The notes: generated from the letters alone by a model not told the origin. 64,000 nucleotides of DNA from Sphingobacteriaceae bacterium (GCA_023251725.1 JAHEYG010000004.1:7066-71065), one strand, 5' to 3'; counted from the first letter of the stretch, positions 1 through 63,200 are shown. Numbers and translations are program-made.

Positions 1-14
1 TTCAAAAATCAATT

Positions 15-26190: not shown

Positions 26191-26279
26191 AATTTGTTAA
26201 CGCATTAAACTTATAGCTATTATTTAAGTCAAATTATTAAACCATCCCGAAGGGAAGCCTTCGGCTAAAAACTAAAATT

Positions 26280-46462: not shown

Positions 46463-46490
46463 ACAGGTTTATGAGTTTCACAGAGAAACG

Positions 46491-47546: not shown

Positions 47547-47576
47547 TTAAAATTTATCATTCAACATTTAAAATTT

Positions 47577-48869
47577 CTAAAGACTCCAATAAGTAAATGA
47601 TTTTATTTTTCCCTTGTACATCCCTTTCACATCCACCACAATTCCGTTTTTATTTAAGATGCCCGAAAAATATTTATCATCAAAACCTTTATACTCTTTA
47701 TGATTTACAGCTACAATTACGCCATCGTAACCTTTTCCTAATTTATTTAAACCAAAACCGTATTCATGCTTTAATTCATCGCTGTCGGCATGCGGATCAA
47801 CAATTTCTACTTTCACACCAAACGATTTTAATTCTTTTACAATATCGGCCACTTTGCTATTTCTGATATCGCTTACATCTTCTTTAAAAGTTGCCCCCAT
47901 TACCAAAACTTTACTTTTGCTGATATTTTTATGCGCAGCAATTATTTTTTTTACGCAGGTTTTTGCAACATAAAATCCCATACTGTCGTTTACATATCGA
48001 CCACTATTGATAACACGCGCGTGATATCCGAGTTCTTCGGCTTTGTAAGTTAAGTAATACGGATCAACGCCAATGCAATGGCCGCCTACTAAACCCGGCG
48101 AGAATCTTAAAAAATTCCATTTTGTTCCGGCAGCTTCTAAAACATCGTAAGTATTAATTCCTAATCGCGAAAAAATAATAGAGAGCTCATTCATCAATGC
48201 AATATTTACATCTCGCTGTGTGTTCTCAATAATTTTAGCGGCTTCGGCCACTTTTATGGAAGATGCTTTATGAGTTCCGGGTTCTACAATAATTTCATAC
48301 ACACTCGAAATATTTTCCAAACTTTCTTTATCACAACCCGAAACAATTTTTAAAATTTTGGTAATGGTATGTTCTTTATCTCCGGGATTAATTCTCTCAG
48401 GAGAATAACCTACTTTAAAATCTTTTATAAATTTTAAACCCGAATGTTCTTCTAAAACAGGAATGCAATCTTCCTCTGTACAGCCGGGATAAACTGTAGA
48501 TTCATAAACAACGTAATCGCCTTTTTTCAAAACTTTTCCCACTGTAGTGGAAGCGCCCAGCAAAGGTTTTAAATCCGGTAAATTATGCTCGTCGATTGGC
48601 GTTGGAACAGCAATAATAAAAAAATTAGCCCTCTTTAAGTCTTCTAATTTATGAGTAAAGGAAATGCTGCAACCGGCAAAATCTTTTTTAGAAAGTTCGT
48701 TACTCGGATCCACCCCATTCTGCATCATCTTAACTCGCTTCTCATTTATATCGAAACCAATAACTTTTACTTTTTTTGCAAAAGCCAATGCAATTGGTAA
48801 TCCAACATATCCTAAACCAATAACTGCAATGGTAGAATTTTTTTTAATTATTTTCTCGTAAATATTCAT
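47577..48869 (-). CDS. Nucleotide-sugar 6-dehydrogenase (TviB/WbpO/VipA-like UDP-GlcNAc/UDP-GalNAc dehydrogenase)
   Basis: VIGLGYVGLP Rossmann motif and GLVGGHCIGVDPYY catalytic Cys motif. 430 aa. Confidence 0.85.
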   Translation of the reverse strand: MNIYEKIIKKNSTIAVIGLGYVGLPIALAFAKKVKVIGFDINEKRVKMMQNGVDPSNELSKKDFAGCSISFTHKLEDLKRANFFIIAVPTPIDEHNLPDLKPLLGASTTVGKVLKKGDYVVYESTVYPGCTEEDCIPVLEEHSGLKFIKDFKVGYSPERINPGDKEHTITKILKIVSGCDKESLENISSVYEIIVEPGTHKASSIKVAEAAKIIENTQRDVNIALMNELSIIFSRLGINTYDVLEAAGTKWNFLRFSPGLVGGHCIGVDPYYLTYKAEELGYHARVINSGRYVNDSMGFYVAKTCVKKIIAAHKNISKSKVLVMGATFKEDVSDIRNSKVADIVKELKSFGVKVEIVDPHADSDELKHEYGFGLNKLGKGYDGVIVAVNHKEYKGFDDKYFSGILNKNGIVVDVKGMYKGKIKSFTYWSL

Positions 48870-48877
48870 AGTACTTT

Positions 48878-49921
48878 TTAATTATTTTTTTTAAATAAAT
48901 TTTCGGGGCGCAAAGCATAAATACGTTCAATGATATCTACCACTTTTAATCCTTCGAGTGCGTTGGTTGAAATTTTATTTTTTCCGTTCAATGTATCAAT
49001 TACATTTTCAATTACAAAATTATGATTGTTGGCAGAACCTTTGTAAGCCCCGTAATCGTTGGCAGGATTTGTAGCCGCTAACAAAGGCATTTTATAATCT
49101 TTAATATTGCAAATTTCAATTTGATCCATGTACTGTCCGCCCACTTTAACCGAACCTTTGCTTCCTATAATGGTCAACGACGATTCTAAATTTTTATCCC
49201 ACACAGCGGTTGAATAATTTACACAGCCCATTCCGCCATTCACAAAATCGAAACTTACGAAACCGCTGTCTTCAAACGCCGTTGTATTTTGGTGATTAAA
49301 ATCGGCGAACTTTGCCTGTATGTTTGTAATATCGCCGAACAACCAATACATAATATCTATCCAATGAGAAAACTGTGTAAACAAAGTACCGCCATCTAAA
49401 TCCTGTGTGCCTTTCCAATTTCCTTTTTTATAATAACGTTCATCCCGGTTCCAATAGCAATTCAACTGCACCATGTAAATATCGCCAATGATTTTATTTT
49501 CAACTACCTCTTTTAACCAAACCGAAGGCGGCGAATAACGGTTTTGCATTACACAAAAAATAGTTTTATGTTGATGCAAGGCGGTAAAAACAATTTTTTC
49601 GCAATCGGCTTTTGTTAAGGCCATCGGTTTTTCGACCACCACATTTTTACCTGACTCCAACGCTTTAATAGCGTGCTGTGCATGTAAACCGTTAGGCGAG
49701 CAAACATTCACCACTTCCACTTCGGGATGCGCTTTTAGTAAGTCATCACTATTCTGATAAAATTTTTCTTTTAAATCCTCCAGTCCTAATTTATCTTTCT
49801 GCAACACATCGCACACAGCAATTAACTCACAATTAGGATTGCGACGCACCATTTCGGCGTGGCGTTTACCAATGTGACCTTGTCCGATGACTGCAAATTT
49901 TATTTTTTTATGCTGTTCCAT
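48878..49921 (-). CDS. Gfo/Idh/MocA-family oxidoreductase (WbpB-like)
   Basis: FAVIGQGHIGKRH N-terminal Rossmann motif and VVVEKPMA motif. It sits between a sugar dehydrogenase and a WbpD-like acetyltransferase. Confidence 0.8.
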   Translation of the reverse strand: MEQHKKIKFAVIGQGHIGKRHAEMVRRNPNCELIAVCDVLQKDKLGLEDLKEKFYQNSDDLLKAHPEVEVVNVCSPNGLHAQHAIKALESGKNVVVEKPMALTKADCEKIVFTALHQHKTIFCVMQNRYSPPSVWLKEVVENKIIGDIYMVQLNCYWNRDERYYKKGNWKGTQDLDGGTLFTQFSHWIDIMYWLFGDITNIQAKFADFNHQNTTAFEDSGFVSFDFVNGGMGCVNYSTAVWDKNLESSLTIIGSKGSVKVGGQYMDQIEICNIKDYKMPLLAATNPANDYGAYKGSANNHNFVIENVIDTLNGKNKISTNALEGLKVVDIIERIYALRPENLFKKNN

Positions 49922-50035
49922 CCTTTTTTACTCCGTGTTTGTTTTGTTTCAGTTTACGAATTCCTTTTTATTTATTTCCGGTTCGCTTGTTCAAATGTTC
50001 TATTGCTCAATTGTTCAAATGTTCGCTTGTTTTTT

Positions 50036-50614
50036 TTAAGAAACTCTCTTCACAAAATTATTTTCTAATTTATATTTCTGTCCGCTTTCATTACAGGCAG
50101 CATTTCCATCCTTATCAAATTCTAACTTGTGACCGAATTCACTCATCCATCCGGTTTGTCGTGCGGGATTTCCGATAACCAAAGCAAATGGCGGAACTGT
50201 TTTTGTAACAACAGCACCCGCACCAATGAAAGCGAATTCACCAATATCGTGTCCGCACACAATGGTAGCATTTGCACCAATGGATGCGCCTTTGCCAACA
50301 TGTGTTTTAGAATATTCTGATTTTCGATTAACAGCGCTTCTTGGATTAATTACATTGGTAAAAACCATCGACGGGCCCAAAAAAACATCATCATCACAAA
50401 TAACGCCGGTGTAAATAGAGACGTTATTCTGAACCTTTACATTTTTTCCCAAAACAACACCCGGCGAAATAACTACATTTTGACCAATATTGCAGTTTTC
50501 TCCCAATATGCTATCAGGCATTAAATGAGAAAAGTGCCATATTTTGGTTCCTTTTCCAATGGTACAACCTTCATCAATTAAGGCTGTGGGATGTGCAAAA
50601 TAGTGTGTTTTCAT
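50036..50614 (-). CDS. Left-handed beta-helix (hexapeptide) N-acetyltransferase, WbpD/WlbB-like
   Basis: Hexapeptide repeats (IGKGTKIWHFSHL, IGQNVVISPGVVLGKNVKVQNNVSI, IGANATIVCG). The ATG at 50614 is preferred over the TTG at 50635. Confidence 0.82.
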   Translation of the reverse strand: MKTHYFAHPTALIDEGCTIGKGTKIWHFSHLMPDSILGENCNIGQNVVISPGVVLGKNVKVQNNVSIYTGVICDDDVFLGPSMVFTNVINPRSAVNRKSEYSKTHVGKGASIGANATIVCGHDIGEFAFIGAGAVVTKTVPPFALVIGNPARQTGWMSEFGHKLEFDKDGNAACNESGQKYKLENNFVKRVS

Positions 50615-50811
50615 TGGGGTTTGTTCAATCTGCAAACTTAAAAAGAAATGTTACAATGTACAATTAATATCGTTTTTAAATGGCACAATTAGTGTGAAAA
50701 AAACATTTTTTTGAAAAACACCTCTAAAAATCAGTCTACTTTAAACGATAATTTACCAACAAAATTATCAATTTTAGCGACTTTTTTTGAAAAAATTCAG
50801 AAATTTTTGTA

Positions 50812-50830: not shown

Positions 50831-50854
50831 GTGCGAAATAAAAGCGGATGGAAA

Positions 50855-52933
50855 ATGACTAACTGTTATAAAAAAATTTCTTTGGTTTGCCTTTGTTTTT
50901 TGTGTTCAGTGTTTGGGAAAACTCAAACTTCGCTGGACTCCAATATTGATTCTTATATAAAGGATTTAAGCGCTGTTTGGAGTAAATACGATACTATTTC
51001 TTTTAACTCATTTTTTAGTGTAGATACCCTTGCCAAACCCACTTTTACCGTTTCTTTTTTTAATCCCGCCTCCAAACTAAAATCGTTGCAACTTCAAATT
51101 AACCGACAGGAACAACTCATAAAAAAGAAAGATTTGGGTTTTTCATTAAATGGTTTGTATCAATATAATTTTCAAAGACCATTTGCCGATCCTAATGAAA
51201 TTATTGTATTCAGGCAAAAAGCAACTTTTGGTATTGATTGGGATTTTTTGAATAACGGCTTATACGAAAATCGGATTTTATTCGGACAATTAAAAAATAA
51301 ATACAAAGCCATTAATGCTAAACGACTGGAAGAAAACGTTGCAAAATTTCAACAAAAAAACACAGAGAACATCATCAATTTTTTCAATAAACATAAACTT
51401 TCTGTTCTCCAAAAACGAAGAGAATTGGTGAATGACCAAAAACCCACAGTAGAAAAATTGTATGCACTTAAACAATTAACTACCGACAGTTATATTAAAT
51501 TATTCCAACACGAAACCGATATTTACGGACAACTTAATTTATACCGGGGATATAATGATGCGGCGCGATTAATTTCGAGCGACAGTAATTCAATAAAAGA
51601 AACTCCGCCTTTGGTGGATATTGATGTTCAGAAATTGTTTCAGATTTCTAACATTACCACTCCCGACTCCTCTGTTTATTACGAAAAAGAATCTTTAAAG
51701 CAGGGAAGCTATTTTTTGAGAGACTTAACCTTAAGAGCTTCTCTTAAATACAATTATTACGATCTTTATAATAACACAACGCTAGACCGCAACTTTGTTT
51801 CTGTAGGAATGAATTTTTCGATGCCCTTGGCTTTTAATTATTCGAACAAAAAAGAGTTGAACCGTTTGAACGGCGAATTGATTCAAACAAAAAACACAGC
51901 CCCTAATCAGGATTTAAATTATATTCTTATAAATACGTTTTACGAATACCGTTACAAACTTAAACAGTATTTTAATTTTATTGAGAAAAGAAAAGCGTTT
52001 GGCGAATTGATAAGAACCGAACAGGTGAAAAAACAAATGGGCGACATTGAATTTAATCCGAACACCGCTTTATATATTTTAGATGATTATTGGTCAATTA
52101 CCATTGAATTGCTCGATATAAAACAAGATTTGTATAAATTACTTCTCGCCATTAATGCCAAGCTTCCTAATCATGTTTTGAACGATTTTATTAAACCGGT
52201 CGAAATTGCACAGTATGCACAGCCGGTTGAAAAACCCTACCGAGCAATTTACATTTGGAGCGATGCATTTAAAAATCACGATGTACAAGTGCTTACTAAT
52301 TATTGCGAGTTAAACGAATTCAGTCATCTTCTTTTGTCCTATAACACTACTAAAAGTCATTTGCAAAATGTAAATCAGTTTATTTCTAAAAATTATACTA
52401 AAAATATTGCTTTAATGGTTGGAAGCAATAAATTATTTACCAATGGAAATATTTCATCTTACCTCGATTCTTTAAAACAAAATATTAATCTCACTTTCAT
52501 AAAAGAAATTCATTTAGATATTGAACCGCACACCATGGATGGCTTCAAAGAAAATAAAGATGCTTTTTTTGCAAAATATATTAAGCTATTAAAACTGGCG
52601 CAACAGTTTACCGGTAAAAACAAATTAAATTTATCGGTTTCCATTCCATTAAATTATCCCGAATCGGTACTCACCGAAATATTTAAATTATGCAGTAATG
52701 TGTATTTAATGGCTTATGAAAATGTGAAGCCTGAATTTATAAACGAAAAAATAAAAGAAGAAATTGCTTTAGGAAAAGATAAAATTGTAATTGCACTTCG
52801 CACAAAAGATTTCGAAAACCGTTCGGCCATGGACCAGCATTTTAAACTTTTCCAAATAAAAAAAATTGCCTATCACGATATTGATGACTTATTGAATTTT
52901 GATAATAAAAGTATTAATGTGAAAGATAAATGA
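50855..52933 (+). CDS. Outer-membrane factor (TolC-like) region fused to a C-terminal ~230-aa alpha/beta (TIM-barrel-like?) domain
   Basis: The start at ATG 50855 gives a signal peptide (ISLVCLCFLCSVFGKTQ). The N-terminal ~450 aa alternate beta-strands (LSLNGLYQYNF, ASLKYNYYDLY, VSVGMNFSMPL) with long helices, as in OEP/TolC. The C-terminal part shows repeated strand-helix units (IYIWSD, HLLLSY, IALMVGS, IHLDIEPH, LSVSIPL, VYLMAYE, IVIALR). Confidence 0.6.
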   Translation: MTNCYKKISLVCLCFLCSVFGKTQTSLDSNIDSYIKDLSAVWSKYDTISFNSFFSVDTLAKPTFTVSFFNPASKLKSLQLQINRQEQLIKKKDLGFSLNGLYQYNFQRPFADPNEIIVFRQKATFGIDWDFLNNGLYENRILFGQLKNKYKAINAKRLEENVAKFQQKNTENIINFFNKHKLSVLQKRRELVNDQKPTVEKLYALKQLTTDSYIKLFQHETDIYGQLNLYRGYNDAARLISSDSNSIKETPPLVDIDVQKLFQISNITTPDSSVYYEKESLKQGSYFLRDLTLRASLKYNYYDLYNNTTLDRNFVSVGMNFSMPLAFNYSNKKELNRLNGELIQTKNTAPNQDLNYILINTFYEYRYKLKQYFNFIEKRKAFGELIRTEQVKKQMGDIEFNPNTALYILDDYWSITIELLDIKQDLYKLLLAINAKLPNHVLNDFIKPVEIAQYAQPVEKPYRAIYIWSDAFKNHDVQVLTNYCELNEFSHLLLSYNTTKSHLQNVNQFISKNYTKNIALMVGSNKLFTNGNISSYLDSLKQNINLTFIKEIHLDIEPHTMDGFKENKDAFFAKYIKLLKLAQQFTGKNKLNLSVSIPLNYPESVLTEIFKLCSNVYLMAYENVKPEFINEKIKEEIALGKDKIVIALRTKDFENRSAMDQHFKLFQIKKIAYHDIDDLLNFDNKSINVKDK

Positions 52934-53023
52934 GAATTGAGAATTGAGAATTTAAGTGTAAAAATTGTCAATCTTTAAAATTGCTCCGAAGGAGTGCCTT
53001 CGGCTTAAATTGTAAATAATATA

Positions 53024-54157
53024 ATGAAAAGTATAAATTTTCAAAGAAACAAATCACTTATTCGTGTAGTAAACGAACCCGATAAAAAAGCGAAAAAACG
53101 CAATTGGGATAAGTTAATTTACATTGCTCTATTGGCGATTTTGGTGTGCTTTGGAACATATTATTTTATTGATAAGGGTTTTTTTGTGAATGCACAAGGT
53201 CAGGTTTTGATTGACGAAACTCACGTAAGATTAACCGATGATGTTCGGCTTTTAGAATATAAAGTTAAAGAAGGTGATAGCATCAGCATGGGCGATACTT
53301 TATTTTGCTACGCTTTTGGTTTAGATAAAGTAAACGGCACTTCAAGTATTGGCACCGATGGTTCAATAAATTTAAACGCCGGCGGTAATGAAGATATGTG
53401 GTGGTTTAAAGAATCATTTAGCATAAAAAAGAAAATAGCCACTAATAGAATTTCTCTCGAAAAAAATAAAATTTTAATTGATAGTTATGAAAAAGAAATA
53501 AAACGATTAACCAATGAAGTGGTGTTAGACGTATTACCAAAAACACGCTTAGATTATGCGCAAACACAAATACTAAATTTAAAAACCACCAATGCAAAAT
53601 TAGCAGCCGAAAATAGTGAATTTGCAGGTTTAGCGAGCACCTTACATCCCTTCGATAATAAAGGGAGGGTTGATTTTGTTAGAAGCGGAGGCTCGTTAAT
53701 TGGTAACGGTGGCTATTCGTTTTTTAAAGGCGGAACAGTAAGTAATTTCAGCGGTGAAATTTTAAGTGAACCTAAATTTTTTAGAGCCCCACTCGAAGGT
53801 ATTGTTACGCGTGTGTATATTCGTCAGCACGAAACTGCCTTGAAATCTGAAACTATTCTCACCATTCACAAACGTTATCCCACCACCATTAAAGCATTTT
53901 TTGAACAACAAGATTTACGTTATTTCAAAGTGGGCGATATTTTTACTTTAACGTTCCCTGACGGGACCGTTAGTCAGGGTATTTTACGCCGTTTTTACAT
54001 TGCCACTTATAATATGCCCGAAGAATTTCAGAAAAAATATGAATCTACCACCCGAGCCGTGGCAGCTGATATTTATCCGCTTACTAAAGAAGATTCCGAT
54101 AAATGGTGTGCCTTTCATAAAATGAGTGTAGAGATTACAAAATTTAAATACAATTAA
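53024..54157 (+). CDS. HlyD-type membrane-fusion (periplasmic adaptor) protein
   Basis: N-terminal TM (LIYIALLAILVCFGTYYFI), a lipoyl-like hairpin (VKEGDSISMGDTLFCY), a coiled coil (KKIATNRISLEKNKILIDSYEKEIKRLTNE), and a beta-barrel segment (GIVTRVYIRQHETALKSETILTI). Confidence 0.7.
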   Translation: MKSINFQRNKSLIRVVNEPDKKAKKRNWDKLIYIALLAILVCFGTYYFIDKGFFVNAQGQVLIDETHVRLTDDVRLLEYKVKEGDSISMGDTLFCYAFGLDKVNGTSSIGTDGSINLNAGGNEDMWWFKESFSIKKKIATNRISLEKNKILIDSYEKEIKRLTNEVVLDVLPKTRLDYAQTQILNLKTTNAKLAAENSEFAGLASTLHPFDNKGRVDFVRSGGSLIGNGGYSFFKGGTVSNFSGEILSEPKFFRAPLEGIVTRVYIRQHETALKSETILTIHKRYPTTIKAFFEQQDLRYFKVGDIFTLTFPDGTVSQGILRRFYIATYNMPEEFQKKYESTTRAVAADIYPLTKEDSDKWCAFHKMSVEITKFKYN

Positions 54158-54165
54158 TATCACAA

Positions 54166-55608
54166 ATGGAAACAAAGATTTTAAATAAAAGCATTGGGTT
54201 TAAAGATAACGTACTTACCTACGGCGATTATTCTCTTTGTTATATTGAAACCAACGGCGCACTTAAAATTGATCACGTTGAGTTTTTTGACGCTGTTATT
54301 TTAGAATCGCGTGACGCTGATTTTGCCCGGTTGATAATTAAAAAAATTCGGAGTAGTTTCGACATCAACGTTTATTTAAAACCCATTTTTTTAATTAATC
54401 ATAAGGAAACAACAGACAGTTACGTAAACGAATTGCACGACGGAATAATTTTTTCGTTCGATCAAATTCCTGAAAAAATAAATGACATTATCCATCTTCA
54501 AAATTTAGCCAAGCATTTAGATCATACACCTTCCAACTCTTTCGAAATTCAAATTTTTAAAAAAGCACTTAACTTTTTATACACGCGCGAAGACCGTTCA
54601 TTATCGCCGGTAGTTGACCCGGCTTCTTTTCTCAGTTATTCTTATCCGCTGCTCTCTGTAAATTTTGAAACCTACGAAGAATCAAAAGTGCTCGATATTT
54701 TAGAATGGGCTTTTCATGAAGATTTAATATGGCCCGATTATTTCGACAGAGTGTATTTATGTAATAATTGTAAAACCGGACGATTATCCATTCGCGAAAC
54801 TTGTCCTTCGTGCCAATCTTCTAATTTAAAACAAGAAGATTTAATACATCATTTTCCTTGCGGATATATTGGACCCATCTCCGATTTTAAAAATAAAGTG
54901 GATGGTTCTTTAAATTGTCCGAAATGTTCTAAAAGTATTCGCCACATTGGCGTGGATTACGATAAACCAAGCGTTATCAATCAATGTTTAAATTGTAATA
55001 ATGTGTTTCAGGATTATATTGTGAAAGCAAAATGCACACATTGCAGTCACGATACCGAAGTTCAATATTTAATTCCCAAAGAAATTAATATTTATAAATT
55101 AACCAAGAAAGGTCGCTTGGCTCCGGTTACAGGAATTGTTACTTCGGGTTTTGAAATTGGTGAAGAGATTAGCGGTACTGTAGGATTTAGTACTTTCTCA
55201 ACCATGATGCATTATGAGCAGCAGCGCATGAAATCAAATCCACAGTTGGTGAGTAATTATTCGGTATTGTATTTAGAAAACATTTTTGATATTCTTAAAA
55301 CCATGGGTATCATAAAAGAAAAAGCATTGCTTTCTGATTTAGCGCAAATTATTCGCGATAACATAACGGCGGCCGATTACATTACTTATCAAAATCCATC
55401 CTTAATTTGCATTTGCATTAACGACGAAAAATTAGTGGATGCGCAAATTTTAACCCAAACAGTCATTAAAAAATTAAAAGAATTATTTCATAATAACTTC
55501 AATAATTTTGAGTTGACTGTAAAATCAAAAACACAAGCATTGGTGCTCACCGAAAAATTTGATGACCGACTAAGAGAAATTACCAAAATCCTTGTCGAGG
55601 AAATATGA
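54166..55608 (+). CDS. Cytoplasmic protein: degenerate receiver-like N-domain + five CxxC pairs (TackOD1-like zinc-ribbon domain?) + C-terminal alpha/beta domain
   Basis: 480 aa. CxxC pairs at residues 199/202, 213/216, 251/254, 274/277 and 290/293. The N-terminal FDAVILESRD...NVYLKPIFLIN resembles the Asp pocket and K-P of REC domains. Confidence 0.75.
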   Translation: METKILNKSIGFKDNVLTYGDYSLCYIETNGALKIDHVEFFDAVILESRDADFARLIIKKIRSSFDINVYLKPIFLINHKETTDSYVNELHDGIIFSFDQIPEKINDIIHLQNLAKHLDHTPSNSFEIQIFKKALNFLYTREDRSLSPVVDPASFLSYSYPLLSVNFETYEESKVLDILEWAFHEDLIWPDYFDRVYLCNNCKTGRLSIRETCPSCQSSNLKQEDLIHHFPCGYIGPISDFKNKVDGSLNCPKCSKSIRHIGVDYDKPSVINQCLNCNNVFQDYIVKAKCTHCSHDTEVQYLIPKEINIYKLTKKGRLAPVTGIVTSGFEIGEEISGTVGFSTFSTMMHYEQQRMKSNPQLVSNYSVLYLENIFDILKTMGIIKEKALLSDLAQIIRDNITAADYITYQNPSLICICINDEKLVDAQILTQTVIKKLKELFHNNFNNFELTVKSKTQALVLTEKFDDRLREITKILVEEI

Positions 55609-56915
55609 TTAATTACATTGATAATTTCTTTAATTATATTTTTGCCGTGGGGCCGACAAAATTAATTAGAGTGTTTTGGTTTTTTGTTTTTTTCGAATTT
55701 CTCCGCTTTTTTGTTCTTGAACTTGCTGTTTTGTTGATTTGGAAATTAACTTCTAAATCTAAATTAATAAAATACGACGAAGCCCGCACAAAATTATTTA
55801 TTGAGCGGCCGCTTATTTCCATTATTGTTCCCGGTAAAAACGAGGGTAAAAATATTTATAAACTGGTTCGCTCAATGAGTGAACAAACTTATAAGAACCT
55901 TGAATTTATTGTGATTGATGATGGTTCGGACGACGATACCGAAATGATATGTAAAAGTCTGCAAAAAAACGGTTTGATTGATTTGTTTTTAAGAAACGAT
56001 GTGAGAGGGGGAAAAGCATCGGCTGCTAATTTAGGATTTCGTTATTCTTCAGGAAAAATTGTAGTGCATTTAGATGCCGATTGTTCTTACGACTACGATG
56101 CTATCGAAAAAATTATTATTCCATTTTATTTAGATGAAAATATTGGCGCTGTGGGAGGAAATATTTTAGTGCGTAATTACGATGATAATTTATGTACCAC
56201 CTTACAGGCCATTGAATACGCTGATACTATTTCGATAGGAAGAATTACCACCAGTTTCCTGGGATTGTACCGTGTGGTGTCGGGCGCATTTGGTGCTTTT
56301 AGTAAAGAGGCCTTAGACAGAGTTGAAGGTTGGGACATTGGCCCCGGATTGGATGGCGATATCACTGTAAAATTAAGAAAGCTGCGTTACAAAATTGTTT
56401 TTGAACCTGATGCAATTTGCCAAACGAGTGTGCCTAATTCTTACAACGGACTAAATAAGCAACGTTTGCGATGGGATAAATCCATTATCAGATTTCGGGT
56501 GAGAAAACATAAAGATGTATTTTTTCCGAACAACCTTTTTAATTTTTCCAATTTCGTTTCATCATTCGAAAATATTACTTACAACATTGTTTTAAATTTA
56601 AAATGGTGGGTGTATATTTTTGATATGATTATTAATTTTCATAATCTGTTAGGGTTTATTCTTCCCTTTAATATTTTGCTTTACACCAGCAGCAACTATT
56701 TAAAGTTTTTGGTTTTTTCTTTATTCCGCAAACGCAAAAACGAATCGGTGGCTTACTTTTTATTATACATACCTTGCATGGTTATTTATTTTGGATTGTA
56801 TTTGCGTATTGTAAGAACCACTGCGTATATACAGGAATTCTTCTTTAAAAAATCATACGACGATCCGTGGAATCCGGCAAAATCATCGCGACACGCAAAG
56901 GAATTAGGAATATGA
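55605..56915 (+). CDS. Membrane-embedded processive family-2 glycosyltransferase (polysaccharide synthase, BcsA/PgaC/NodC/HAS class)
   Basis: IIVPGKNEG, FIVIDDGSDD, HLDADC (DxD), GAFGAF and the QRLRWDK (Q-x-x-R-W) motif. Hydrophobic segments lie at both ends. Its ATGA overlaps the upstream stop. Confidence 0.85.
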   Translation: MINYIDNFFNYIFAVGPTKLIRVFWFFVFFEFLRFFVLELAVLLIWKLTSKSKLIKYDEARTKLFIERPLISIIVPGKNEGKNIYKLVRSMSEQTYKNLEFIVIDDGSDDDTEMICKSLQKNGLIDLFLRNDVRGGKASAANLGFRYSSGKIVVHLDADCSYDYDAIEKIIIPFYLDENIGAVGGNILVRNYDDNLCTTLQAIEYADTISIGRITTSFLGLYRVVSGAFGAFSKEALDRVEGWDIGPGLDGDITVKLRKLRYKIVFEPDAICQTSVPNSYNGLNKQRLRWDKSIIRFRVRKHKDVFFPNNLFNFSNFVSSFENITYNIVLNLKWWVYIFDMIINFHNLLGFILPFNILLYTSSNYLKFLVFSLFRKRKNESVAYFLLYIPCMVIYFGLYLRIVRTTAYIQEFFFKKSYDDPWNPAKSSRHAKELGI

Positions 56916-59572
56916 TGGGGGGGTTAAAAAATAAAATTTCAATTGTTTTTCTTTTCTGTGGACATTTGTTATTTTCTCAGATTTTAAGGGCGCCGTTATT
57001 TTCTTTTCCCGCCGGATTCTACAGCGATTCGGTAATTATTAATATTAATAGCCCCGATGCAGGCGTTACCATTCGTTATACTTTAGACGGAAGCACACCA
57101 AAAATAACTTCTGCCATCTTTAGCACACCGTTAGTAATGAAAGACCGAACGCCGCAGTTGAACCGATTTTCAAACATCCCTACAAATCCCGGATTTAATT
57201 ACCCAAAACCGGGTTACGATGTTTCCAGAGCCGATTCGAGAGGATGGCTACCGCCATATGGAACGGTTTTTAAGGGGACTGTATTAAAAGCGCTTTGTTT
57301 TAAAGCAGGAGCCATAACCACTATTGATTCGGTGAGCACCGCCACTTATTTAATCACCAATTTATTAAACACGCGTTATTCGTTTCCTGTTTTATCAATA
57401 TCTGTCGACAGCGCTGCTTTTTTTTCGGATAGCACCGGAATTTATGTTTATGGTATAGATACCGCTGCTCAGGGAAATTATAATGTAGATAAAGCTAATC
57501 GCAAAATTCACATTGAGTTTTTTGAAACCGACGGCACTAAAAAATTAAAACAATATTGCGATGCGCGCATTCACGGCAACGGCGGGCGGCATGCGCCTCA
57601 AAAAAGTTTACAACTTATTTCTTCTAAAATTTACGGTGTAAAAAAATTCGATTATAAATTTTTTAAAGATAAAATTACACATGTGTTTAACCGCCTACTT
57701 CTTCGTAACGGAGGCCATCGACCCGATTGCATGCCGCGCGATGATATTGCCACCGAAATTTTAAAAGTCTCCGAAAATAATGATGTACAGCATGTGCGGC
57801 ACGCTGTTGTTTTTTTGAATGGCGAATATTGGGGCTTGCAAAGTATACGCGATGTGTTCGACGATAATTACTTGGCCAATAAATTTAATTTAAAAAATTA
57901 TAATTTCGTTGTCCTCAAGGAAACCGGAACACTTGATGAAGGATTGCCCGGCGATGAAATTCCTTATCAAAATTTATTAAGTTTTGTTCAAACTAATAAT
58001 TTAAATATTTATTCTAATTATGCACAAGTGCGCGAAAAAATCGACCTCGAAAGTTTTACCGATTTCCAGTGCTCACAAATATTTTTGGGAAATGGCGATT
58101 GGCCCAATAACAATACCAAATTCTGGCGCTATAAAAGGGCAGTTAACGATACTTCAGTAAATACCATTTACGACGGCAAATGGCGCTGGTTTATTTTTGA
58201 CATGGACGCCGCCTGGGGCGGCGATTGCACCGGCTTCTATCCAAATTTTAATGCGGTTTTAAATGCCTTTGATATTTCTTACAACAGTTATACTGCCATG
58301 TTGCGTAATCTTATTTTAAACACTTCTTACAAAAATTATTTCATTAACCGTTTTGCTGATTTATTGAACACTACTTTTTTAATATCAAGAACAACTTCTA
58401 TTATCAATTCTCAAAATGCTGAACTGAATCCCGAAATGTTGGAGCACGTAAATCGTTGGCGGTATCCTTCGGTAGCCACTACACTTTTGGCTCGCTCAAC
58501 CGAAACACCGTCGCTTACCAAATGGAATGCGATTAATTCGGGGATGTTGAATTTTGCTTCACAACGGCCTGCTAAAACGTACAAACATTTTTTAAATTAT
58601 TTTTTACTTGCCGATACTGTAAAAACCACACTTAATGTAAACGATTCAACAAAAGGTAAAATCAGAATTAACAGTTTGTATTTAGATAAATGGCTGGTTG
58701 GCGCAAACCCGAATGTGTATCCCTGGAAAGGAACTTATTTCGATGGAAATAAAATTCAATTGGAAGCCATTGCTAAACCCGGGTTTAAATTTTTAAATTG
58801 GAGCACGCCTTCTTATACCACCACCAATTTAAACCTCAACGTTACACAGGATACAAATATTACTGCGGTGTTTGCCGTAGACAGCAGTTTTAAACCGCTG
58901 CATTATGTTTTTATAAATGAAATAATGGCCAGCAACACAAAAGGTATTGCCGACGATTACAACGAAAAAAATGATTGGATAGAAATTTATAACCCTAATA
59001 ATTTTACAATTAATCTTTCCGATTATTATTTGACCGACTCTGTAAATAACAAAACAAAATTTCAGATAAGCACTAAACGTTATCCGACGCACAACATTAA
59101 ACCTAAGGGTTTTTTATTATTATGGGCCGATAATGATGTAGAGCAAGGAAGTTTACATTGTAATTTTAAATTAAGCTTAGCCGCCGGATGCCTGTATTTA
59201 ATTTTACCGGATGGAAAAACAGTAGTGGATTCTATTTGCTATCCCACACAAAAATCGGATATATCGTGGGGAAGAGAAAAAGACGGCGCCGATAAATGGA
59301 TCGATTGGGATGTGCCCACTCCCAACGCCAGCAATCTTAAAATAATTAAACCACCTTACATCGGCGATTTATTGCTTTATCCCAACCCGGTAAAAAATGG
59401 TGAACTTTTAAATTTTACTTATTTAATTTCGGCCAATGTGTTTAATGTATTGGGACAAAAAGTTTCTGAAATTAATAATTCAAATATTTTAAATGTAGAA
59501 AGTTTTGCTTCCGGATTTTATTTTGTAAAAATAATAGACGGCCCCGTTTTAAAATTTATCAAAATAAATTAA
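56912..59572 (+). CDS. T9SS-secreted multidomain protein: chitobiase/hexosaminidase-C-like domain, CotH kinase-family domain, lamin-tail (LTD) domain, type A T9SS sorting domain
   Basis: The ATG at 56912 overlaps the GT2 stop (ATGA). Domain evidence: FPAGFYSDSVIININSPDAGVTIRYTLDGSTP, then a CotH-like core (LLLRNGG...FLNGEYWGLQSIRD...), then LTD (VFINEIMASNT...NDWIEIYNPNNFTINLSDYYLTD), then CTD (LLLYPNPVKNGELLNF...GFYFVKII). Confidence 0.8.
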   Translation: MMGGLKNKISIVFLFCGHLLFSQILRAPLFSFPAGFYSDSVIININSPDAGVTIRYTLDGSTPKITSAIFSTPLVMKDRTPQLNRFSNIPTNPGFNYPKPGYDVSRADSRGWLPPYGTVFKGTVLKALCFKAGAITTIDSVSTATYLITNLLNTRYSFPVLSISVDSAAFFSDSTGIYVYGIDTAAQGNYNVDKANRKIHIEFFETDGTKKLKQYCDARIHGNGGRHAPQKSLQLISSKIYGVKKFDYKFFKDKITHVFNRLLLRNGGHRPDCMPRDDIATEILKVSENNDVQHVRHAVVFLNGEYWGLQSIRDVFDDNYLANKFNLKNYNFVVLKETGTLDEGLPGDEIPYQNLLSFVQTNNLNIYSNYAQVREKIDLESFTDFQCSQIFLGNGDWPNNNTKFWRYKRAVNDTSVNTIYDGKWRWFIFDMDAAWGGDCTGFYPNFNAVLNAFDISYNSYTAMLRNLILNTSYKNYFINRFADLLNTTFLISRTTSIINSQNAELNPEMLEHVNRWRYPSVATTLLARSTETPSLTKWNAINSGMLNFASQRPAKTYKHFLNYFLLADTVKTTLNVNDSTKGKIRINSLYLDKWLVGANPNVYPWKGTYFDGNKIQLEAIAKPGFKFLNWSTPSYTTTNLNLNVTQDTNITAVFAVDSSFKPLHYVFINEIMASNTKGIADDYNEKNDWIEIYNPNNFTINLSDYYLTDSVNNKTKFQISTKRYPTHNIKPKGFLLLWADNDVEQGSLHCNFKLSLAAGCLYLILPDGKTVVDSICYPTQKSDISWGREKDGADKWIDWDVPTPNASNLKIIKPPYIGDLLLYPNPVKNGELLNFTYLISANVFNVLGQKVSEINNSNILNVESFASGFYFVKIIDGPVLKFIKIN

Positions 59573-60180
59573 AAACTATATTTTATTCCAAGCCCCGAAG
59601 AATTAATTGTAATTGAAACATCGTTCAAAATCTGGTCTAAATGCTTATTCCTAAGTTTTACGTTTAAATAAGTCATGGCAGCATCAAATACCAATAAAGC
59701 GCTTCCCTGCACAATAAACGAATTGCCAAAACCCGAGCACAAATTGCGGTCGTTGATACTGCTTTGGTTTTTAGATACTTCCTTTAATAAAAATCCTGCA
59801 GTAATGTAAGTAAGATCCAGCATGGCATTGGCAAGAAATACTTTTTCGGTTTTTGTATGGTCATTTAAGAGCGAAATTTTCGACTTATACTCTTTATTTT
59901 TAGCTAGTAGCGAGGGCAGAGCAATCCCTAAATTAATTAATCCCCATCCTGCATTCATGGCATAAAAATACTTTTCTTCGGGCAAATTCGATGCAAAATA
60001 TCCTGCTCCGCTCGCAAGGTTAATTGACGCCCAAGTGGTTAGAACAGTCATTCCGCGTTTACTTAATTGGTACCTTTTATCTGCAAAATCCTTAATGAGA
60101 TAACCACTTTGTGCCCTTAAACTTACCACGTATAAAGAAAATACGACCACTTTTAAAATGTTATACATTTTATGTTTCAT
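59569..60180 (-). CDS. Hypothetical multi-pass membrane protein
   Basis: 203-aa ORF with a signal/TM segment (VVVFSLYVVSLRAQ) and further hydrophobic helices. It is convergent with the CotH gene, and the two ends overlap by 4 nt. Confidence 0.55.
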   Translation of the reverse strand: MKHKMYNILKVVVFSLYVVSLRAQSGYLIKDFADKRYQLSKRGMTVLTTWASINLASGAGYFASNLPEEKYFYAMNAGWGLINLGIALPSLLAKNKEYKSKISLLNDHTKTEKVFLANAMLDLTYITAGFLLKEVSKNQSSINDRNLCSGFGNSFIVQGSALLVFDAAMTYLNVKLRNKHLDQILNDVSITINSSGLGIKYSF

Positions 60181-60248: not shown

Positions 60249-63200
60249 ATGATTTCAGGTTTATTTAAAAGAAAAGTAAAAAGCGCGCTTATCGCGGGAG
60301 CTTTATTAGTTGCTGGTAATTCTTACTCACAACTTGGTCTTAGTTGGTCAGAAATGGGTCCGGATGACGTGGCCGGTCGTTGCCGTGCAATGATTATTGA
60401 TAACACCGATCCTACCGGAAACACCATGTACGCCGCTGGTACAAGCGGTGGTATTTTTAAATCAACGGATGCTGCAAACAATTGGGCTCCTCTAAACGAT
60501 CAATCGGCCTCTTTAATAGTTTCCAGTATGGCACAGGCTCCTAACGGCGTTATTTACGTTGGTACCGGCGAAACATTTGCTCGTGGTGGTGATGGTTCAG
60601 GATTAACCGGCTTTATAGGAAAAGGTTTATACAAATTCTCGCCGGGTGCAACCAGCATCACTTTAGTGAAAGATTCAGCTTTATTTGGCAATATTAATGA
60701 GGTGGTGGTTGACCCAACTTCCAATAATAAAATTTATGTTGCGGGCGATAGGGGTTTATTTGTTTCAACAGATGCTGGTGCCACTTTTGCTTTAGGAAAC
60801 ACTACAGTTTCTGCTATGGACGTTAAAGTTACGCCCGACGGAACGGTTTATTATTCGGAAGGAACAAAAACAAGTTCTACTTCGCAAGTTTGGAAAAGTG
60901 TCAGCGGTACAGTGGGTACATTTTCTAATATTACCCCAACACTAACTACTAATAACGGACGAATCGAAATTGCAGTTTCACCAAGCAATCCTAATTACGT
61001 TTATATCTCCATTGCAAAAAAATTCACACCATCTACTCTTATTGGTGGCGGTTTATATGCATTTTACGCTTCTAATGATAAAGGCGTAACATGGAAATTA
61101 ATTATTTATGGAACGGCTCAATTAGATCCATTAACCAGTACAACCAGCAGCTCTTCCAGTTTCGGAGATTATTGCAATACTTTAGTGGTTGACCCTACAA
61201 ACCCGGGATCGGTTTACATTGCCGGTTATGTTATTTATAACTGGAGACAAATTTCGGGCGCCGCTTTTGGAACAGGTGGATGGACTCAAATTGGAACAGA
61301 ATTTGGTGCCGGTATCTTTCCACTATTTGTTCATACCAAAGTTCACGATATTAAATTTCTTCCTTCTAACTCTAAACAATATTTCATTGCTACCGACGGT
61401 GGTATTTACAAAACAGTATCGCTAACTAATGACCCTTATTTTTGGCCTACTGCTTTTTTACCATTTAATAAAGGTTTTAATATTTCTCAATTTAACTCTG
61501 TTGCTTATCAAAATTTTCCTAAAAACATTGCAGCAACCGGAAGCCCGAGCCTTAACCCGGCGGCAGGAGTAGCCGGTGGTACAAGCGGTAACGGACCTTG
61601 TTATTTACCCGGTACTTTAAATACACTTCAAACTTCTGTTGGTTATACAAGCGTTGATTCTTATCAGTCAGATTTTTCTAAACTTTTACCTAATGCATTA
61701 TTCGTTTCAAATGGATACGGCTCTATACAAAGAAGTAACGATATTGCCAATGTACCCCCATCTACTTTTTACGATGCTCCTTATAAAGTAGGGGCTGCCG
61801 GTGGACCGGGAACAACTACTTTTGCCAATGAAATAACCCCAATGAGATTGTGGGAAAATTACGGCAATGTTGCTCCTCCGGTGGATTTTGCTATTGTGTA
61901 TGATGTGCCTATTAAAAGCACTTTTGTAAATACCGGCAAAAACACATATTCGTTTGCTATTAATAGTACCCGACCTCAGGCAGCAGCAAAATATGATACC
62001 GTTTATATTACAGCTACCAGTACTAAAAAAGAAGGAATGAGTAATCATCCTGCAACTTACAATTACACAGTTGCTAATACTTTGCCGGTGGGGCCTACAG
62101 CAGTTACCGCAAATACAGTTACCTCTGCTGTAACTTTTACTGTTGTTAATACAAGACCAAACGCAAATATTAAATATTCTTCTATTGTAATGACTTCAAC
62201 ACCCATTCCAACCAATATTGTAGCGGCACAAAGCGTAACTTTTACTCCTGTTTATACAGGTAGTGTTGTTACGAGCGTTCTTACAACAGCCACTGCAACT
62301 GATAATGCAATATTTATTACTGCTACACCATCTGCTACTCCAACTGACAGTATGCATTTTACTTTTGATATAGCGCCTGATAATATTTCTTTAATTTCTT
62401 TTCAATTTAATTATCTGCCTACACAAACTCAATTTGTTTTAGCCACTACTCGGCCCTCTAGTATTTGCAGGTACGATACCATCGCGGTAAAATCTACAAA
62501 TCCATTACAAACTTTTACTATTTTACCTAAATACGATTACAATGCAAATGTGGTTTCTTATGCTTTCTTAGGAACAGGAGGAAATACTTTAGCAGTTGGC
62601 AATAACACAGTTACTCCATACGCATCTCTTACTGATAGTATTCGTTTCACGTTTAATACCGCTCCTCTTTTGTCTTCTTTAATTACCGTGCGAACGCATT
62701 TAAGATATGTACAAAACATTACTTTAGTTCCAACTTATTCCGGATCTACAGTTACCGCAGTTGCTGCCATTGGTTCGGCTAATACGGTTTCTCCTATAAA
62801 TAATTTTGTTTATCCTCTAAAGAGTTTAACAGATAGTATTAGATTTTATTTTAAAACCAAACCGGATGATTCGTGTACCATATCTTCGGTAGTTAAGCTA
62901 AGATATAATTCGGGCGATTATGTTACAGTTAACAATACCGATATAAGTAATAGTTTTTTTAAAGACAGTTTACTTCTTACCAGTACACTTACTTCAAACA
63001 GCATTCCGCCTTTTGTAAAAATTCCTTTAAGAAAATCGGCACGAATGGCGGTGGGAATTACCGCTGCGGTTTATGTTGTGAAACGACCATTGAATTTTGC
63101 TATTAATCCTGACTGGGTTAAAATAGCAGGTAAAAATTCGCGCCCGGATAGTGCATCGGGAATGCCAGCAAAAATATATAGTAATACTCCTGCTGTTCCT

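Follow-up and report, generated by a model that had tools for sequence, protein, structure and literature searches.

The locus described here raises the question of whether a processive polysaccharide synthase can discharge its product through a conduit built like a tripartite efflux pump. It lies in a stretch of 64,000 nucleotides, designated the window, from an uncultured Bacteroidota bacterium, in which the ORF calls placed five plus-strand genes between positions 50855 and 59572 (Table 1). The junctions were read directly from the sequence, and the layout given in the preliminary description was confirmed. The TGA of gene 1 (52931-52933) is separated by 90 nt from the ATG of gene 2 (53024), the TAA of gene 2 (54155-54157) by 8 nt from the ATG of gene 3 (54166), while genes 3 and 4 (55605-55608) and genes 4 and 5 (56912-56915) are joined by ATGA overlaps. 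A public copy of the gene 1 protein (P0121), 700 aa long, implies that translation starts instead from the in-frame GTG located at 50831.

Table 1. Positions in the window of the five genes, their domains and adjoining features
Feature	Coordinates	Strand	Description
Divergent nucleotide-sugar operon	45485-50635	-	TviC-like 4-epimerase, RmlB, TviB-like UDP-GlcNAc 6-dehydrogenase, WbpB-like Gfo/Idh/MocA oxidoreductase, NeuD/PglB-type acetyltransferase
Gene 1	50855-52933	+	692 aa; predicted OMF-like protein fused to a C-terminal domain
Gene 1, TolC-fold region	residues ~1-445	+	predicted from AF2 model and Foldseek
Gene 1, TIM-barrel-like domain	52220-52933 (residues ~456-692)	+	predicted from AF2 model and Foldseek
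Hairpin	52986-53003	+	CCGAAGG-AGTG-CCTTCGG; GC-rich, in the 90-nt gap between genes 1 and 2
Gene 2	53024-54157	+	377 aa; HlyD/EmrA-type membrane-fusion (periplasmic adaptor) protein
Gene 3	54166-55608	+	480 aa; TackOD1 and predicted degenerate GGDEF-fold protein
Gene 3, N-terminal domain	54166-54540	+	small alpha/beta domain in the AF2 model
Gene 3, TackOD1 domain	54559-55101	+	multi-Cys zinc ribbon, PF18551
Gene 3, degenerate GGDEF-fold domain	55153-55599 (residues ~330-478)	+	predicted from profile and Foldseek
Gene 4	55605-56915	+	436 aa; predicted membrane-embedded processive GT2, PgaC/IcaA type
Gene 5	56912-59572	+	886 aa; predicted secreted accessory protein: signal peptide, CHB_HEX_C/Fn3_assoc module, CotH, InlB-B-repeat-like module, LTD, T9SS CTD
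Gene 5, CotH kinase-like domain	57566-58570	+	PF08757, 1.7e-34
Gene 5, lamin-tail domain (LTD)	58907-59242	+	LTD, 1.5e-12
Gene 5, T9SS C-terminal sorting domain	59375-59542	+	Por_Secre_tail, 1.5e-6; TIGR04183, 5.6e-8

The spacer between genes 1 and 2 had a folding energy of -19.4 kcal/mol (z = -3.06), and the stem of its hairpin recurs at 26247-26264, there too about 15-20 nt 5' of a start codon. The idea that the hairpin is conserved and regulates the operon was rejected, since the closest relative (L046) lacks it. An Rfam scan of the whole window at the gathering threshold gave no match. Sigma-70 promoters, counted with a tool that does not cover Bacteroidota promoters, numbered 50 in the window, near the value for shuffled sequence (40.9 +/- 5.5), and the 15 terminator-like sites represented a modest excess over the shuffled expectation of 8.9 +/- 3.1.

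Gene order was compared in 80 related loci, each from the genome of a different Bacteroidota species. The succession of an outer membrane factor (OMF)-like protein, a membrane-fusion protein (MFP), a TackOD1 protein and a GT2 was preserved in 71-80 of them, with an HlyD-type MFP gene beside the synthase in 76. The TackOD1 and GT2 genes overlapped in 73 of 77 loci and the median gaps upstream were 2 nt (genes 1 and 2) and 6 nt (genes 2 and 3), an arrangement beyond chance. The cultured Portibacter marinus had the same gene order with proteins 24-56% identical, and counterparts 27-56% identical to three of the four were present in the cultured Spongiivirga citrea, the first gene corresponding by position only. 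The conserved unit consists of these four genes. The CotH/LTD/T9SS gene, which the preliminary description counted as part of a five-gene unit, followed the cassette in only about 18-19 of the 80 loci (directly 3' of the GT2 gene in 17-18) and neither of the two closest relatives has it, which makes it a recurrent accessory, not core. Its ATGA overlap with the GT2 gene was unique to the window, the gap in the 15 other CotH-bearing loci being 18-724 nt with no overlap. The five-gene layout is real in the window, and among the related loci synteny held for four genes in essentially all cases but not for the fifth.

The product of gene 4 has hydrophobic segments at both ends (residues ~12-50, and 341-359 and 382-400 within ~341-400) and the motifs DDGS105, DAD157-159, GLDGD and QRLRW286-290, with D250 aligned to the Asp of the PgaC TED motif. 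These residues, invariant in 76 orthologues, supply the D, the DxD, the catalytic D at the TED position and the QxxRW of processive GT2 enzymes. Hydropathy and the model alignment place TM helices on both sides of the catalytic domain, where they could form a translocation channel. The protein matched the PgaC_IcaA model (TIGR03937) with an E-value of 1.1e-49, residues 41-415 aligning to positions 20-394 of 407. The match extends through the C-terminal membrane region, and the earlier assignment as a processive GT2 was upheld. The product is not fixed as PNAG, since the score of 169.5 bits was far below the equivalog cutoff of 422.3. The identity to E. coli PgaC was 33% (E 6e-34), while the E-values for BcsA (9e-4) and NfrB (0.14) led to rejection of a BcsA-like or NfrB-like assignment. 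Hyaluronan synthase structures aligned to residues 112-388. There was no match to PilZ, and the protein ends directly after the last TM helix. On these sequence comparisons gene 4 is a PgaC/IcaA-type processive synthase and not a BcsA-like one.

The remaining core genes suggest how the polymer might leave the cell. Gene 2, taken from the outset as an HlyD adaptor, has a single N-terminal TM helix (residues 31-49). HlyD_3 was matched by 21 of 25 family members (best 6e-8), HlyD_D23 by 10 and Biotin_lipoyl_2 by 8; the family profile matched the EmrA structures 4tko (5e-4) and 8zar (2.7e-3), and gene 2 matched RND_mfp at 3e-5. Gene 1 had no match in Pfam or NCBIfam at E <= 0.1, including OEP (PF02321), and its full-length family profile none among PDB sequences at E <= 1. 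Its AF2 model (pLDDT 82) consists of four beta strands and long helix pairs, followed by seven beta-alpha units, and the secondary structure has the OMF pattern, an internally duplicated fold in which each protomer contributes four beta strands plus long helical hairpins. Foldseek searches of the PDB returned TolC, CmeC, OprN, OprM, CusC and VceC (E 1e-6 to 1e-4, probability 1.00, 400-480 columns), with low TM-scores for the AF2 monomer (TMq 0.25-0.30, rmsd 12-16 Å).

The C-terminal part of the model resembled TIM barrels (TrpA, TMt 0.56-0.59; GH18 SleL, E 7e-5). A profile of this domain had as its best PDB match 10yv_A, a 'putative GH97', at a sub-threshold E-value of 0.24, a Pfam scan of each family member at E <= 10 gave only noise, and no significant sequence relative of known activity was found in these PDB and Pfam searches. 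Invariant residues (Y466, W468, S469, N525, H553, D555, E557, M619, Y621, E622, R649, D652 and H674) lie at strand ends. They include the motif HLDxEPH/MxYE, whose H553-x-D555-x-E557 and M619-x-Y621-E622 presumably resemble the GH18 DxDxE and MxYD motifs. The model comparisons identify gene 1 as a TolC-fold, OMF-like protein with a fused TIM barrel; the TolC-like character proposed earlier was retained, to which a domain of 230 residues has to be added. The counterparts in Portibacter and Spongiivirga are shorter and lack the TIM barrel, and the C-terminal extension of the Portibacter protein had no significant similarity to it.

Proteins of the MFP and OMF families are typically found in efflux systems, and genes 1 and 2 could serve ordinary efflux or type I secretion with a pump encoded elsewhere, their proximity to the GT2 gene being incidental. 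This interpretation is extremely improbable and is largely refuted by the synteny, the four genes being nearly abutting and in the same order in 80 loci, even where identity falls to 24-30% in genera that have been cultured. Moreover, no ABC, RND or MFS pump recurred beside the cassette and no annotated neighbor cluster in the 80 loci was a pump, in agreement with the original interpretation. The fused TIM barrel would also be unusual among efflux OMFs.

A second alternative is that the exported product is not a matrix polysaccharide of high molecular weight but a small glycoconjugate or oligosaccharide, such as a chito-oligosaccharide-like signal or a glycolipid, made by a NodC-like GT2 and released through the MFP-OMF pair as an efflux conduit. 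Gene 4 did match NodC (1.2e-18) and the Chitin_synth_2 family, MFP-TolC ducts classically move small molecules and unfolded proteins, and none of the five proteins matched the TPR scaffold or beta-barrel porin families of exopolysaccharide systems in Pfam or NCBIfam, the export slot being held by the MFP and the TolC-fold protein. Several observations nevertheless make this alternative unlikely, 1) by far the best match of the GT2 is PgaC/IcaA, over its whole length, 2) QxxRW together with terminal TM helices is the mark of channel-forming processive synthases, 3) the recurrent neighbors encode secreted polymer-modifying proteins (CE4 deacetylase and CotH/LTD proteins with carbohydrate-associated modules) and 4) a true polymer of Sinorhizobium meliloti genetically requires TolC (PMC13438883).

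Gene 3, which has no TM helix, had been described as a pseudo-receiver with multiple CxxC motifs and zinc ribbons. The zinc-ribbon part was substantiated by a match of residues 132-312 to TackOD1 (PF18551, E 4e-52, 176.9 bits, cutoff 32). The eleven cysteines, H228 and H229 were invariant among 228 diverse family members and H260 was present in 211. The domain has been described as having ~180 residues with 11 conserved cysteines in CxxC pairs and an HxxC motif, and its function was termed obscure (PMC5847659). The receiver reading was rejected, as there was no Response_reg match in Pfam and a profile of residues 1-127 found no receiver among PDB sequences at E <= 10. In the AF2 model this N-terminal domain has a three-strand meander and, after it, about three beta-alpha units; it may be remotely flavodoxin-like.

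The statement that the operon has no visible c-di-GMP module also had to be abandoned. The gene 3 family profile matched GGDEF structures over residues 331-467 (3ign, 1.1e-5; 5euh, 1.3e-4), and the AF2 model (pLDDT 85.7) matched GGDEF domains in Foldseek with a TMt of 0.6-0.71. As modeled, the protein does have a module of the c-di-GMP type, for a GGDEF fold that is catalytically dead follows its TackOD1 zinc ribbons. QNPSL stands at the motif position and E371/N372 in place of the Asp pair, so that both the GG(D/E)EF motif and the metal-binding Asp of an active diguanylate cyclase are absent. The GGDEF motif was lost in all 228 family members, and G[GAS][DE]EF occurred in 0 of 227 relatives. 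The I-site of the PelD/PssE type was defined as RxxD five residues upstream of the degenerate motif on a GGDEF fold. The window has T401-A-A-D404 at this site, a TxxD without the Arg, which 21 of 81 close relatives and 106 of 228 (46%) diverse ones possess, the Asp being essentially invariant.

It is plausible, though short of probable, that the GGDEF fold is merely a docking scaffold and that gene 3, rather than sensing a nucleotide, is a structural co-subunit of the synthase, with a function like that of PgaD/IcaD, or a zinc or redox switch acting through its 11 cysteines. The universal loss of the GGDEF motif, the variable I-site Arg and the invariant Cys/His set are in keeping with such a role, as is the lack of any encoded small membrane protein resembling PgaD/IcaD. 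Use of c-di-GMP is not known from archaea. TackOD1 occurs there as well, adjoining type IV pilus loci (PMC5847659). On the other hand, RxxD is still the commonest state and the Asp is nearly invariant, a pattern difficult to account for if the site binds no ligand; moreover, PssE and PelD, degenerate GGDEF proteins encoded in the same operons as synthases, are proven c-di-GMP receptors (PMC4125290). Family members that retain RxxD probably sense c-di-GMP.

Gene 5 proved to be the T9SS-directed CotH/lamin-tail protein that had been predicted. In addition to the domains in Table 1, for which Por_Secre_tail and TIGR04183 scored above their cutoffs, CHB_HEX_C_1 and Fn3_assoc were each matched at 1.3e-9, and the sorting domain matched the solved T9SS CTD 8glj_D (7.9e-5). 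No accessory neighbor cluster was found in more than 18 of the 80 loci. The commonest after the core were polysaccharide-related, namely the CotH-T9SS gene (18 loci), an ArnC/GtrB-like GT2 (13) and a T9SS CE4 deacetylase (12), the last in three different positions flanking the cassette and absent from the window. The divergent operon upstream of gene 1 was identified by matches to TviB (1e-143), TviC (3.3e-97) and dTDP-glucose 4,6-dehydratase (1.7e-142), and by Pfam for the remainder. Of the 80 loci, only three (L046, L001 and L034) had these nucleotide-sugar genes close to the cassette, and the operon was rejected as a general part of it. It was retained as a lead because a TviB-like dehydrogenase, 50% identical to that of the window, is located inside the Spongiivirga citrea cassette, and precursor supply is a possible function. 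The flanking CE4 deacetylase, the CHB_HEX_C module of gene 5 and the TviB-like genes in or near cassettes suggest that the polymer is probably a beta-linked N-acetylhexosamine(-uronate).

Taken together, the cassette is probably a synthase-dependent exopolysaccharide secretion machine built on the synthase-MFP-OMF plan of a tripartite efflux pump. Gene 4, an inverting GT2, would polymerize a UDP-activated sugar at the inner membrane, most likely an N-acetylhexosamine and possibly its uronic acid, and thread the chain across. The EmrA-like MFP, anchored by its single helix, would form the periplasmic conduit and gene 1, a dedicated TolC-fold outer membrane factor, the exit duct. The TIM barrel may reside in the periplasm at the entrance of the duct and trim or edit the polymer, like BcsZ, the C-terminal domain of PgaB or XcsC. 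Gene 3, presumably cytoplasmic, would dock on the synthase as an obligatory regulator or co-subunit by way of the TackOD1 platform and the dead GGDEF domain. Where present, gene 5 would be exported by the type IX system and act on or bind the polymer at the surface.

The case for processive synthases plugging into MFP/TolC ducts is still an indirect one; the TolC gene is located elsewhere in the genome in both published cases, on account of which one review treats the model as unvalidated (PMC12430437, PMC13438883). Here, a single cassette keeps the synthase, MFP and OMF genes together in 80 species-level genomes, and the distant cassettes of the cultured Portibacter marinus and Spongiivirga citrea make the tripartite model testable by genetics, cross-linking and cryo-EM. 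The orphan TackOD1 domain gains a concrete partner in the GT2 synthase with its overlapping gene. To our knowledge, little c-di-GMP signaling has been described in Bacteroidota, and a degenerate GGDEF module joined to TackOD1 is of interest in that respect. The cassette also points to a surface polymer, as yet undescribed, of Bacteroidota from freshwater, soil and wastewater, about whose matrix polysaccharides little is known. It is a more tentative and somewhat doubtful proposition that this is the first operon-encoded, self-contained tripartite polysaccharide exporter, its duct equipped with its own periplasmic glycosidase-like domain, and that the N-domain/TackOD1/dead GGDEF protein represents an uncharacterized class of regulator that governs the synthase without canonical c-di-GMP binding in this lineage. 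The signal would then be zinc, redox or another nucleotide, for example, and TackOD1 would have its first functional context.

Literature searches found no paper describing this gene combination, in line with the initial impression that it is not a described system. Closer precedents had been missed at that stage: the BgsAB plus TolC and XcsAB-TolC tripartite models, PssE/PssC and the CotH genes at Pel loci. The closest characterized homolog of the synthase belongs to PgaABCD/IcaADBC, and some related loci share a deacetylase with that system. However, the five-gene operon has no homologs of PgaD/IcaD, the TPR-porin PgaA or PgaB by Pfam and NCBIfam, and export would proceed through the MFP and OMF. 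Unlike the canonical cellulose, PNAG, alginate and Pel systems, the cassette has neither a TPR scaffold nor a 16-18-stranded beta-barrel porin by these family searches.

PssE and PelD are membrane-anchored and are required for their exopolysaccharide synthases. Gene 3 resembles them as a predicted catalytically dead GGDEF protein encoded in a synthase operon, but it is soluble, has TackOD1 and an additional N-terminal domain, and has TxxD in place of the canonical RxxD I-site of PssE. The Listeria PssE receptor works with PssC, which is also an IcaA-like GT2 (PMC4125290). Secreted CotH genes are contiguous with Gram-positive Pel loci and affect Pel levels (PMC7112168, PMC12345266), SIR_1594 of Streptococcus intermedius being one of them (PMC12345266). 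Both there and here a secreted CotH protein, optional across species, adjoins the locus of a synthase-dependent polymer, of N-acetylhexosamine in Pel and probably in the cassette. The Pel-locus genes, however, are accompanied by a polyphosphate polymerase, DUF4956 and DUF4832, with the GT4 PelF as synthase, whereas gene 5 is a predicted T9SS cargo with LTD and CHB_HEX_C modules beside a GT2.

The published relatives of the proposed exporter are BgsAB-TolC and XcsAB-TolC, both with the TolC gene outside the synthase operon. In S. meliloti, TolC is needed for the synthesis of mixed-linkage beta-glucan by BgsA/BgsB, a processive GT2 encoded beside an HlyD-type MFP, and a tripartite model was proposed (PMC13438883). 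BgsA resembles cellulose synthases and has a C-terminal domain of its own that binds c-di-GMP (PMC5567048), whereas the PgaC-like GT2 of the window has only 436 aa and no extra domain, a separate TackOD1/GGDEF-like protein being the candidate regulator. The Bgs TolC is a housekeeping protein; the OMF of the window is dedicated, encoded in the operon and apparently fused to a TIM barrel. For cyanobacterial cellulose, a model of XcsA (Tll0007), the HlyD-like XcsB and TolC with the endoglucanase XcsC was put forward by Maeda et al. 2018 and called unvalidated in a review (PMC12430437). The cassette shares with it a synthase, an adjacent HlyD-like adaptor, a TolC-like channel and a fourth part, a glycoside hydrolase in Xcs and a candidate hydrolase-like domain here. 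XcsA, however, is a PilZ-bearing BcsA homolog. In the window the OMF includes the hydrolase-like domain, and the c-di-GMP-type module is a degenerate GGDEF fold on a separate protein.

Direct reading of the junctions, together with the ORF calls, bore out the layout given in the preliminary description, in which five genes lie on the same strand with gaps of 90 nt between genes 1 and 2 and 8 nt between genes 2 and 3, and ATGA overlaps join gene 3 to gene 4 (55605-55608) and gene 4 to gene 5 (56912-56915). A GTG at 50831, eight codons upstream of gene 1, is a possible earlier start, as in an identical 700-residue public protein (P0121). The 90-nt spacer contains a 7-bp GC-rich stem, CCGAAGG-N4-CCTTCGG, which occurs twice in the window (none expected by chance), each time in a same-strand intergenic gap with CT(A/T)AA after the stem and the next ATG about 15-20 nt downstream. 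The spacer copy was not found in the closest relative (L046).

Features of the operon, its surroundings and related loci (L-numbers)
Feature	Location	Strand	Remark
Gene 1, OMF-like/TIM barrel	window 50855-52933	+	ORF
Gene 2, MFP	window 53024-54157	+	ORF
Gene 3, TackOD1/GGDEF-like	window 54166-55608	+	ORF
Gene 4, GT2 synthase	window 55605-56915	+	ORF
Gene 5, CotH/LTD/T9SS	window 56912-59572	+	ORF
CCGAAGG-N4-CCTTCGG stem	window 52986-53003; 26247-26264		first copy in the gene 1/gene 2 spacer
DUF6992 gene	window 59569-60180	-	convergent with gene 5
Long ORF	window 60249-64000	+	continues past the window end
Divergent operon	window 45485-50635	-	TviC-like, RmlB, TviB-like, WbpB-like, NeuD/PglB-like
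Gene 1 counterpart, Portibacter marinus	L085 5339-6949		536 aa
Gene 1 counterpart, Spongiivirga citrea	L086 3890-5416		508 aa
TviB-like UDP-GlcNAc 6-dehydrogenase, S. citrea	L086 6603-7967		inside the cassette
ArnC/PgfS/GtrB-like GT2	L048 1680-2630		and 12 other loci
CE4 deacetylase	L001 12996-15095; L008 4432-6522; L011 4446-6542; L074 7758-9884		and eight other loci

A pattern-based scan covering a single genome for each GTDB species yielded 223 loci with a gene 3 relative, and synteny was determined from the 80 best, all of them uncultured Bacteroidota MAGs, by tblastn and unsupervised ORF clustering. The proposed check on neighbourhood conservation gave a clear result for the first four genes, which kept the same order and strand wherever the contig allowed (gene 1 in 71-73, gene 2 in 73-76, gene 3 in 80 and gene 4 in 78 of the 80 loci). 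The median gaps were 2 nt between genes 1 and 2 and 6 nt between genes 2 and 3, while genes 3 and 4 overlapped in 73 of 77 loci. Coupling of all five genes was seen in the window, but the CotH gene directly followed the GT2 gene in only 17-18 of the 80 related loci, was absent from the two closest relatives and overlapped the GT2 gene in none of the other loci that have it. Gene 5 encodes CHB_HEX_C/Fn3_assoc, CotH and LTD domains and a sorting domain that matches a solved T9SS CTD, as expected of the T9SS-secreted CotH/lamin-tail protein originally described, and its distribution suggests that it is an optional accessory at the cell surface. Genes for secreted CotH proteins are also attached to Gram-positive Pel loci, where deletion of one resulted in less Pel and less aggregation (PMC7112168, PMC12345266). 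Downstream, the stop codons of the DUF6992 and CotH genes overlap by 4 nt, leaving no space for a terminator between them. The long ORF beyond (>1250 aa) has a signal peptide and no Pfam match at E ≤ 0.001, and the last residues that fall within the window (LYPNPASD) look like the beginning of a T9SS sorting domain.

The product of gene 4 matched Glycos_transf_2 and Glyco_tranf_2_3 in Pfam, and its top NCBIfam match was PgaC_IcaA (1.1e-49), aligned nearly end to end with a score below the equivalog cutoff. Among E. coli proteins, it was closest to PgaC (6e-34, 33% identity), followed by BcsA (9e-4) and NfrB (0.14), and assignment to the cellulose synthase type was rejected on the difference between the PgaC and BcsA values. 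The hydrophobic helices at both ends and the D/DxD/QRLRW signature were present as reported (DDGS105, DAD157, D250, QRLRW286), and these catalytic motifs were invariant among 76 orthologues. Gene 4 is thus predicted to encode a processive synthase of the PgaC/IcaA type.

Gene 3, which overlaps the synthase gene, has a strong TackOD1 domain (4e-52), in agreement with a zinc-ribbon protein directly upstream of the synthase; the function of TackOD1 is called obscure in its only paper (PMC5847659). The further designation as a pseudo-receiver was not sustained, as no receiver homology was found in the N-terminal ~125 residues. Instead, the family profile matched solved GGDEF domains over residues 331-467, and the AF2 model (pLDDT 85.7) superposed on GGDEF domains with TMt 0.6-0.71. 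Since QNPSL replaces the GGDEF motif and none of 227 relatives has an intact one, the domain is predicted to be catalytically dead. The I-site position, RxxD in c-di-GMP-binding GGDEF folds, is a non-canonical TxxD in gene 3; the Asp was invariant, and RxxD occurred in 21 of 81 close relatives and 106 of 228 diverse ones. Consequently, the earlier statement that no PilZ or other c-di-GMP module is visible stands for the synthase, which lacks PilZ, but not for gene 3 with its degenerate GGDEF fold. Given the absence of a TM helix, the tight coupling of its gene to that of the synthase and this dead fold, the protein is best read, by analogy with PssE/PelD (PMC4125290), as a cytoplasmic regulator or co-subunit of the synthase. 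The architecture defines a large family (2,486 clusters at 50% identity, E ≤ 1e-3), of which the best 150 clusters were mostly 440-490 aa and matched nearly end to end; distant members were still from Bacteroidota.

Gene 2 alone gave a weak HlyD_3 match, and in its family HlyD_3 was found in 21 of 25 members, with matches to HlyD_D23 or Biotin_lipoyl_2 also among the members. The family profile also matched EmrA structures and there is a single N-terminal TM helix, so that the putative HlyD adaptor can be classed as a membrane-fusion protein (MFP).

Gene 1 had no sequence-family match in Pfam, NCBIfam or, as a family profile, among PDB sequences. In its AF2 model (pLDDT 82), residues ~1-445 have the strand and long-helix pattern of TolC, and Foldseek retrieved TolC, CmeC, OprN, OprM and CusC (E about 1e-6). 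This supports the TolC-like assignment at the level of the fold, with the caveat that the model is of a monomer and its TM-scores are low. In the same model, residues ~456-692 fold into a beta/alpha barrel, which Foldseek matched to TIM barrels, among them that of the GH18 enzyme SleL, with invariant residues at the barrel strand ends, notably H553-L-D555-I-E557 and M619-x-Y621-E622. Neither a profile search of the PDB nor a per-member Pfam scan revealed a significant sequence relative of the barrel with a characterised activity. The shorter Portibacter and Spongiivirga counterparts lack the HLDxEPH/MxYE core, so the fused barrel appears to be specific to the clade of the window.

These two cultured species, Portibacter marinus and Spongiivirga citrea, carry distant versions of the cassette, each with a GT2 56% identical to that of the window. 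The former has OMF-like, MFP-like, TackOD1 and GT2 genes; the latter has the same order, its first gene being equated with gene 1 by position alone, plus an inserted gene for a TviB-like UDP-GlcNAc 6-dehydrogenase that separates the MFP gene from the TackOD1 gene. This enzyme is 50% identical to the TviB-like protein of the divergent operon upstream of the window cassette, and its insertion hints that the polymer may include N-acetylhexosaminuronic acid. The five genes of that operon, none of which encodes an aminotransferase, are predicted to specify a UDP-GlcNAcA-derived sugar pathway. The divergent operon adjoins the cassette in L046, L001 and partly L034, and in no other related locus. Apart from the CotH gene, no neighbour occurred in more than 14 of the 80 loci, and the recurrent ones were polysaccharide-related. 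A CE4 polysaccharide deacetylase of ~700 aa with a T9SS tail flanked the cassette in 12 loci, on its upstream side, on its downstream side or following the CotH gene, with no homologue within the 64-kb window. In 13 loci, belonging to one subclade of the family, the gene that directly precedes gene 1 in the same orientation encodes an ArnC/PgfS/GtrB-like polyprenyl-phosphate glycosyltransferase. No recurring ABC, RND or MFS pump was present among the annotated neighbour clusters.

Sequence, predicted structure and gene context suggest the following mechanism. GT2 family enzymes are inverting, and for this reason gene 4 is proposed to polymerise and translocate a beta-linked polymer. The PgaC-like synthase, the recurrent CE4 deacetylase in related loci and CHB_HEX_C in gene 5 make an N-acetylhexosamine-based sugar probable, possibly with N-acetylhexosaminuronic acid, and the TviB linkage in Spongiivirga and beside the window cassette points to the same chemistry. 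To cross the periplasm and the outer membrane, the chain would pass through the MFP and the outer-membrane factor (OMF). The termini of TolC are periplasmic, which would place the fused barrel at the duct entrance, where it might trim the chain in the manner of XcsC, BcsZ or the C-terminal domain of PgaB. The same conduit plan has been proposed for BgsAB-TolC and XcsAB-TolC (PMC13438883, PMC12430437).

No paper describing the cassette was found in a literature search, consistent with the initial impression that the combination is not a described system. The canonical synthase-dependent systems have a TPR scaffold and porin that are absent here. A pga or ica system was ruled out, since PgaD/IcaD, PgaA and PgaB are missing and the score of the synthase falls short of the equivalog cutoff. 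The cassette resembles the Bgs and Xcs tripartite models in plan, yet is a member of neither, its synthase being unlike BcsA and having no PilZ or BgsA-type c-di-GMP domain. What is new is the TackOD1/degenerate-GGDEF partner of the synthase, the Bacteroidota and T9SS setting and, as modelled, a dedicated OMF encoded in the operon and fused to a TIM barrel.
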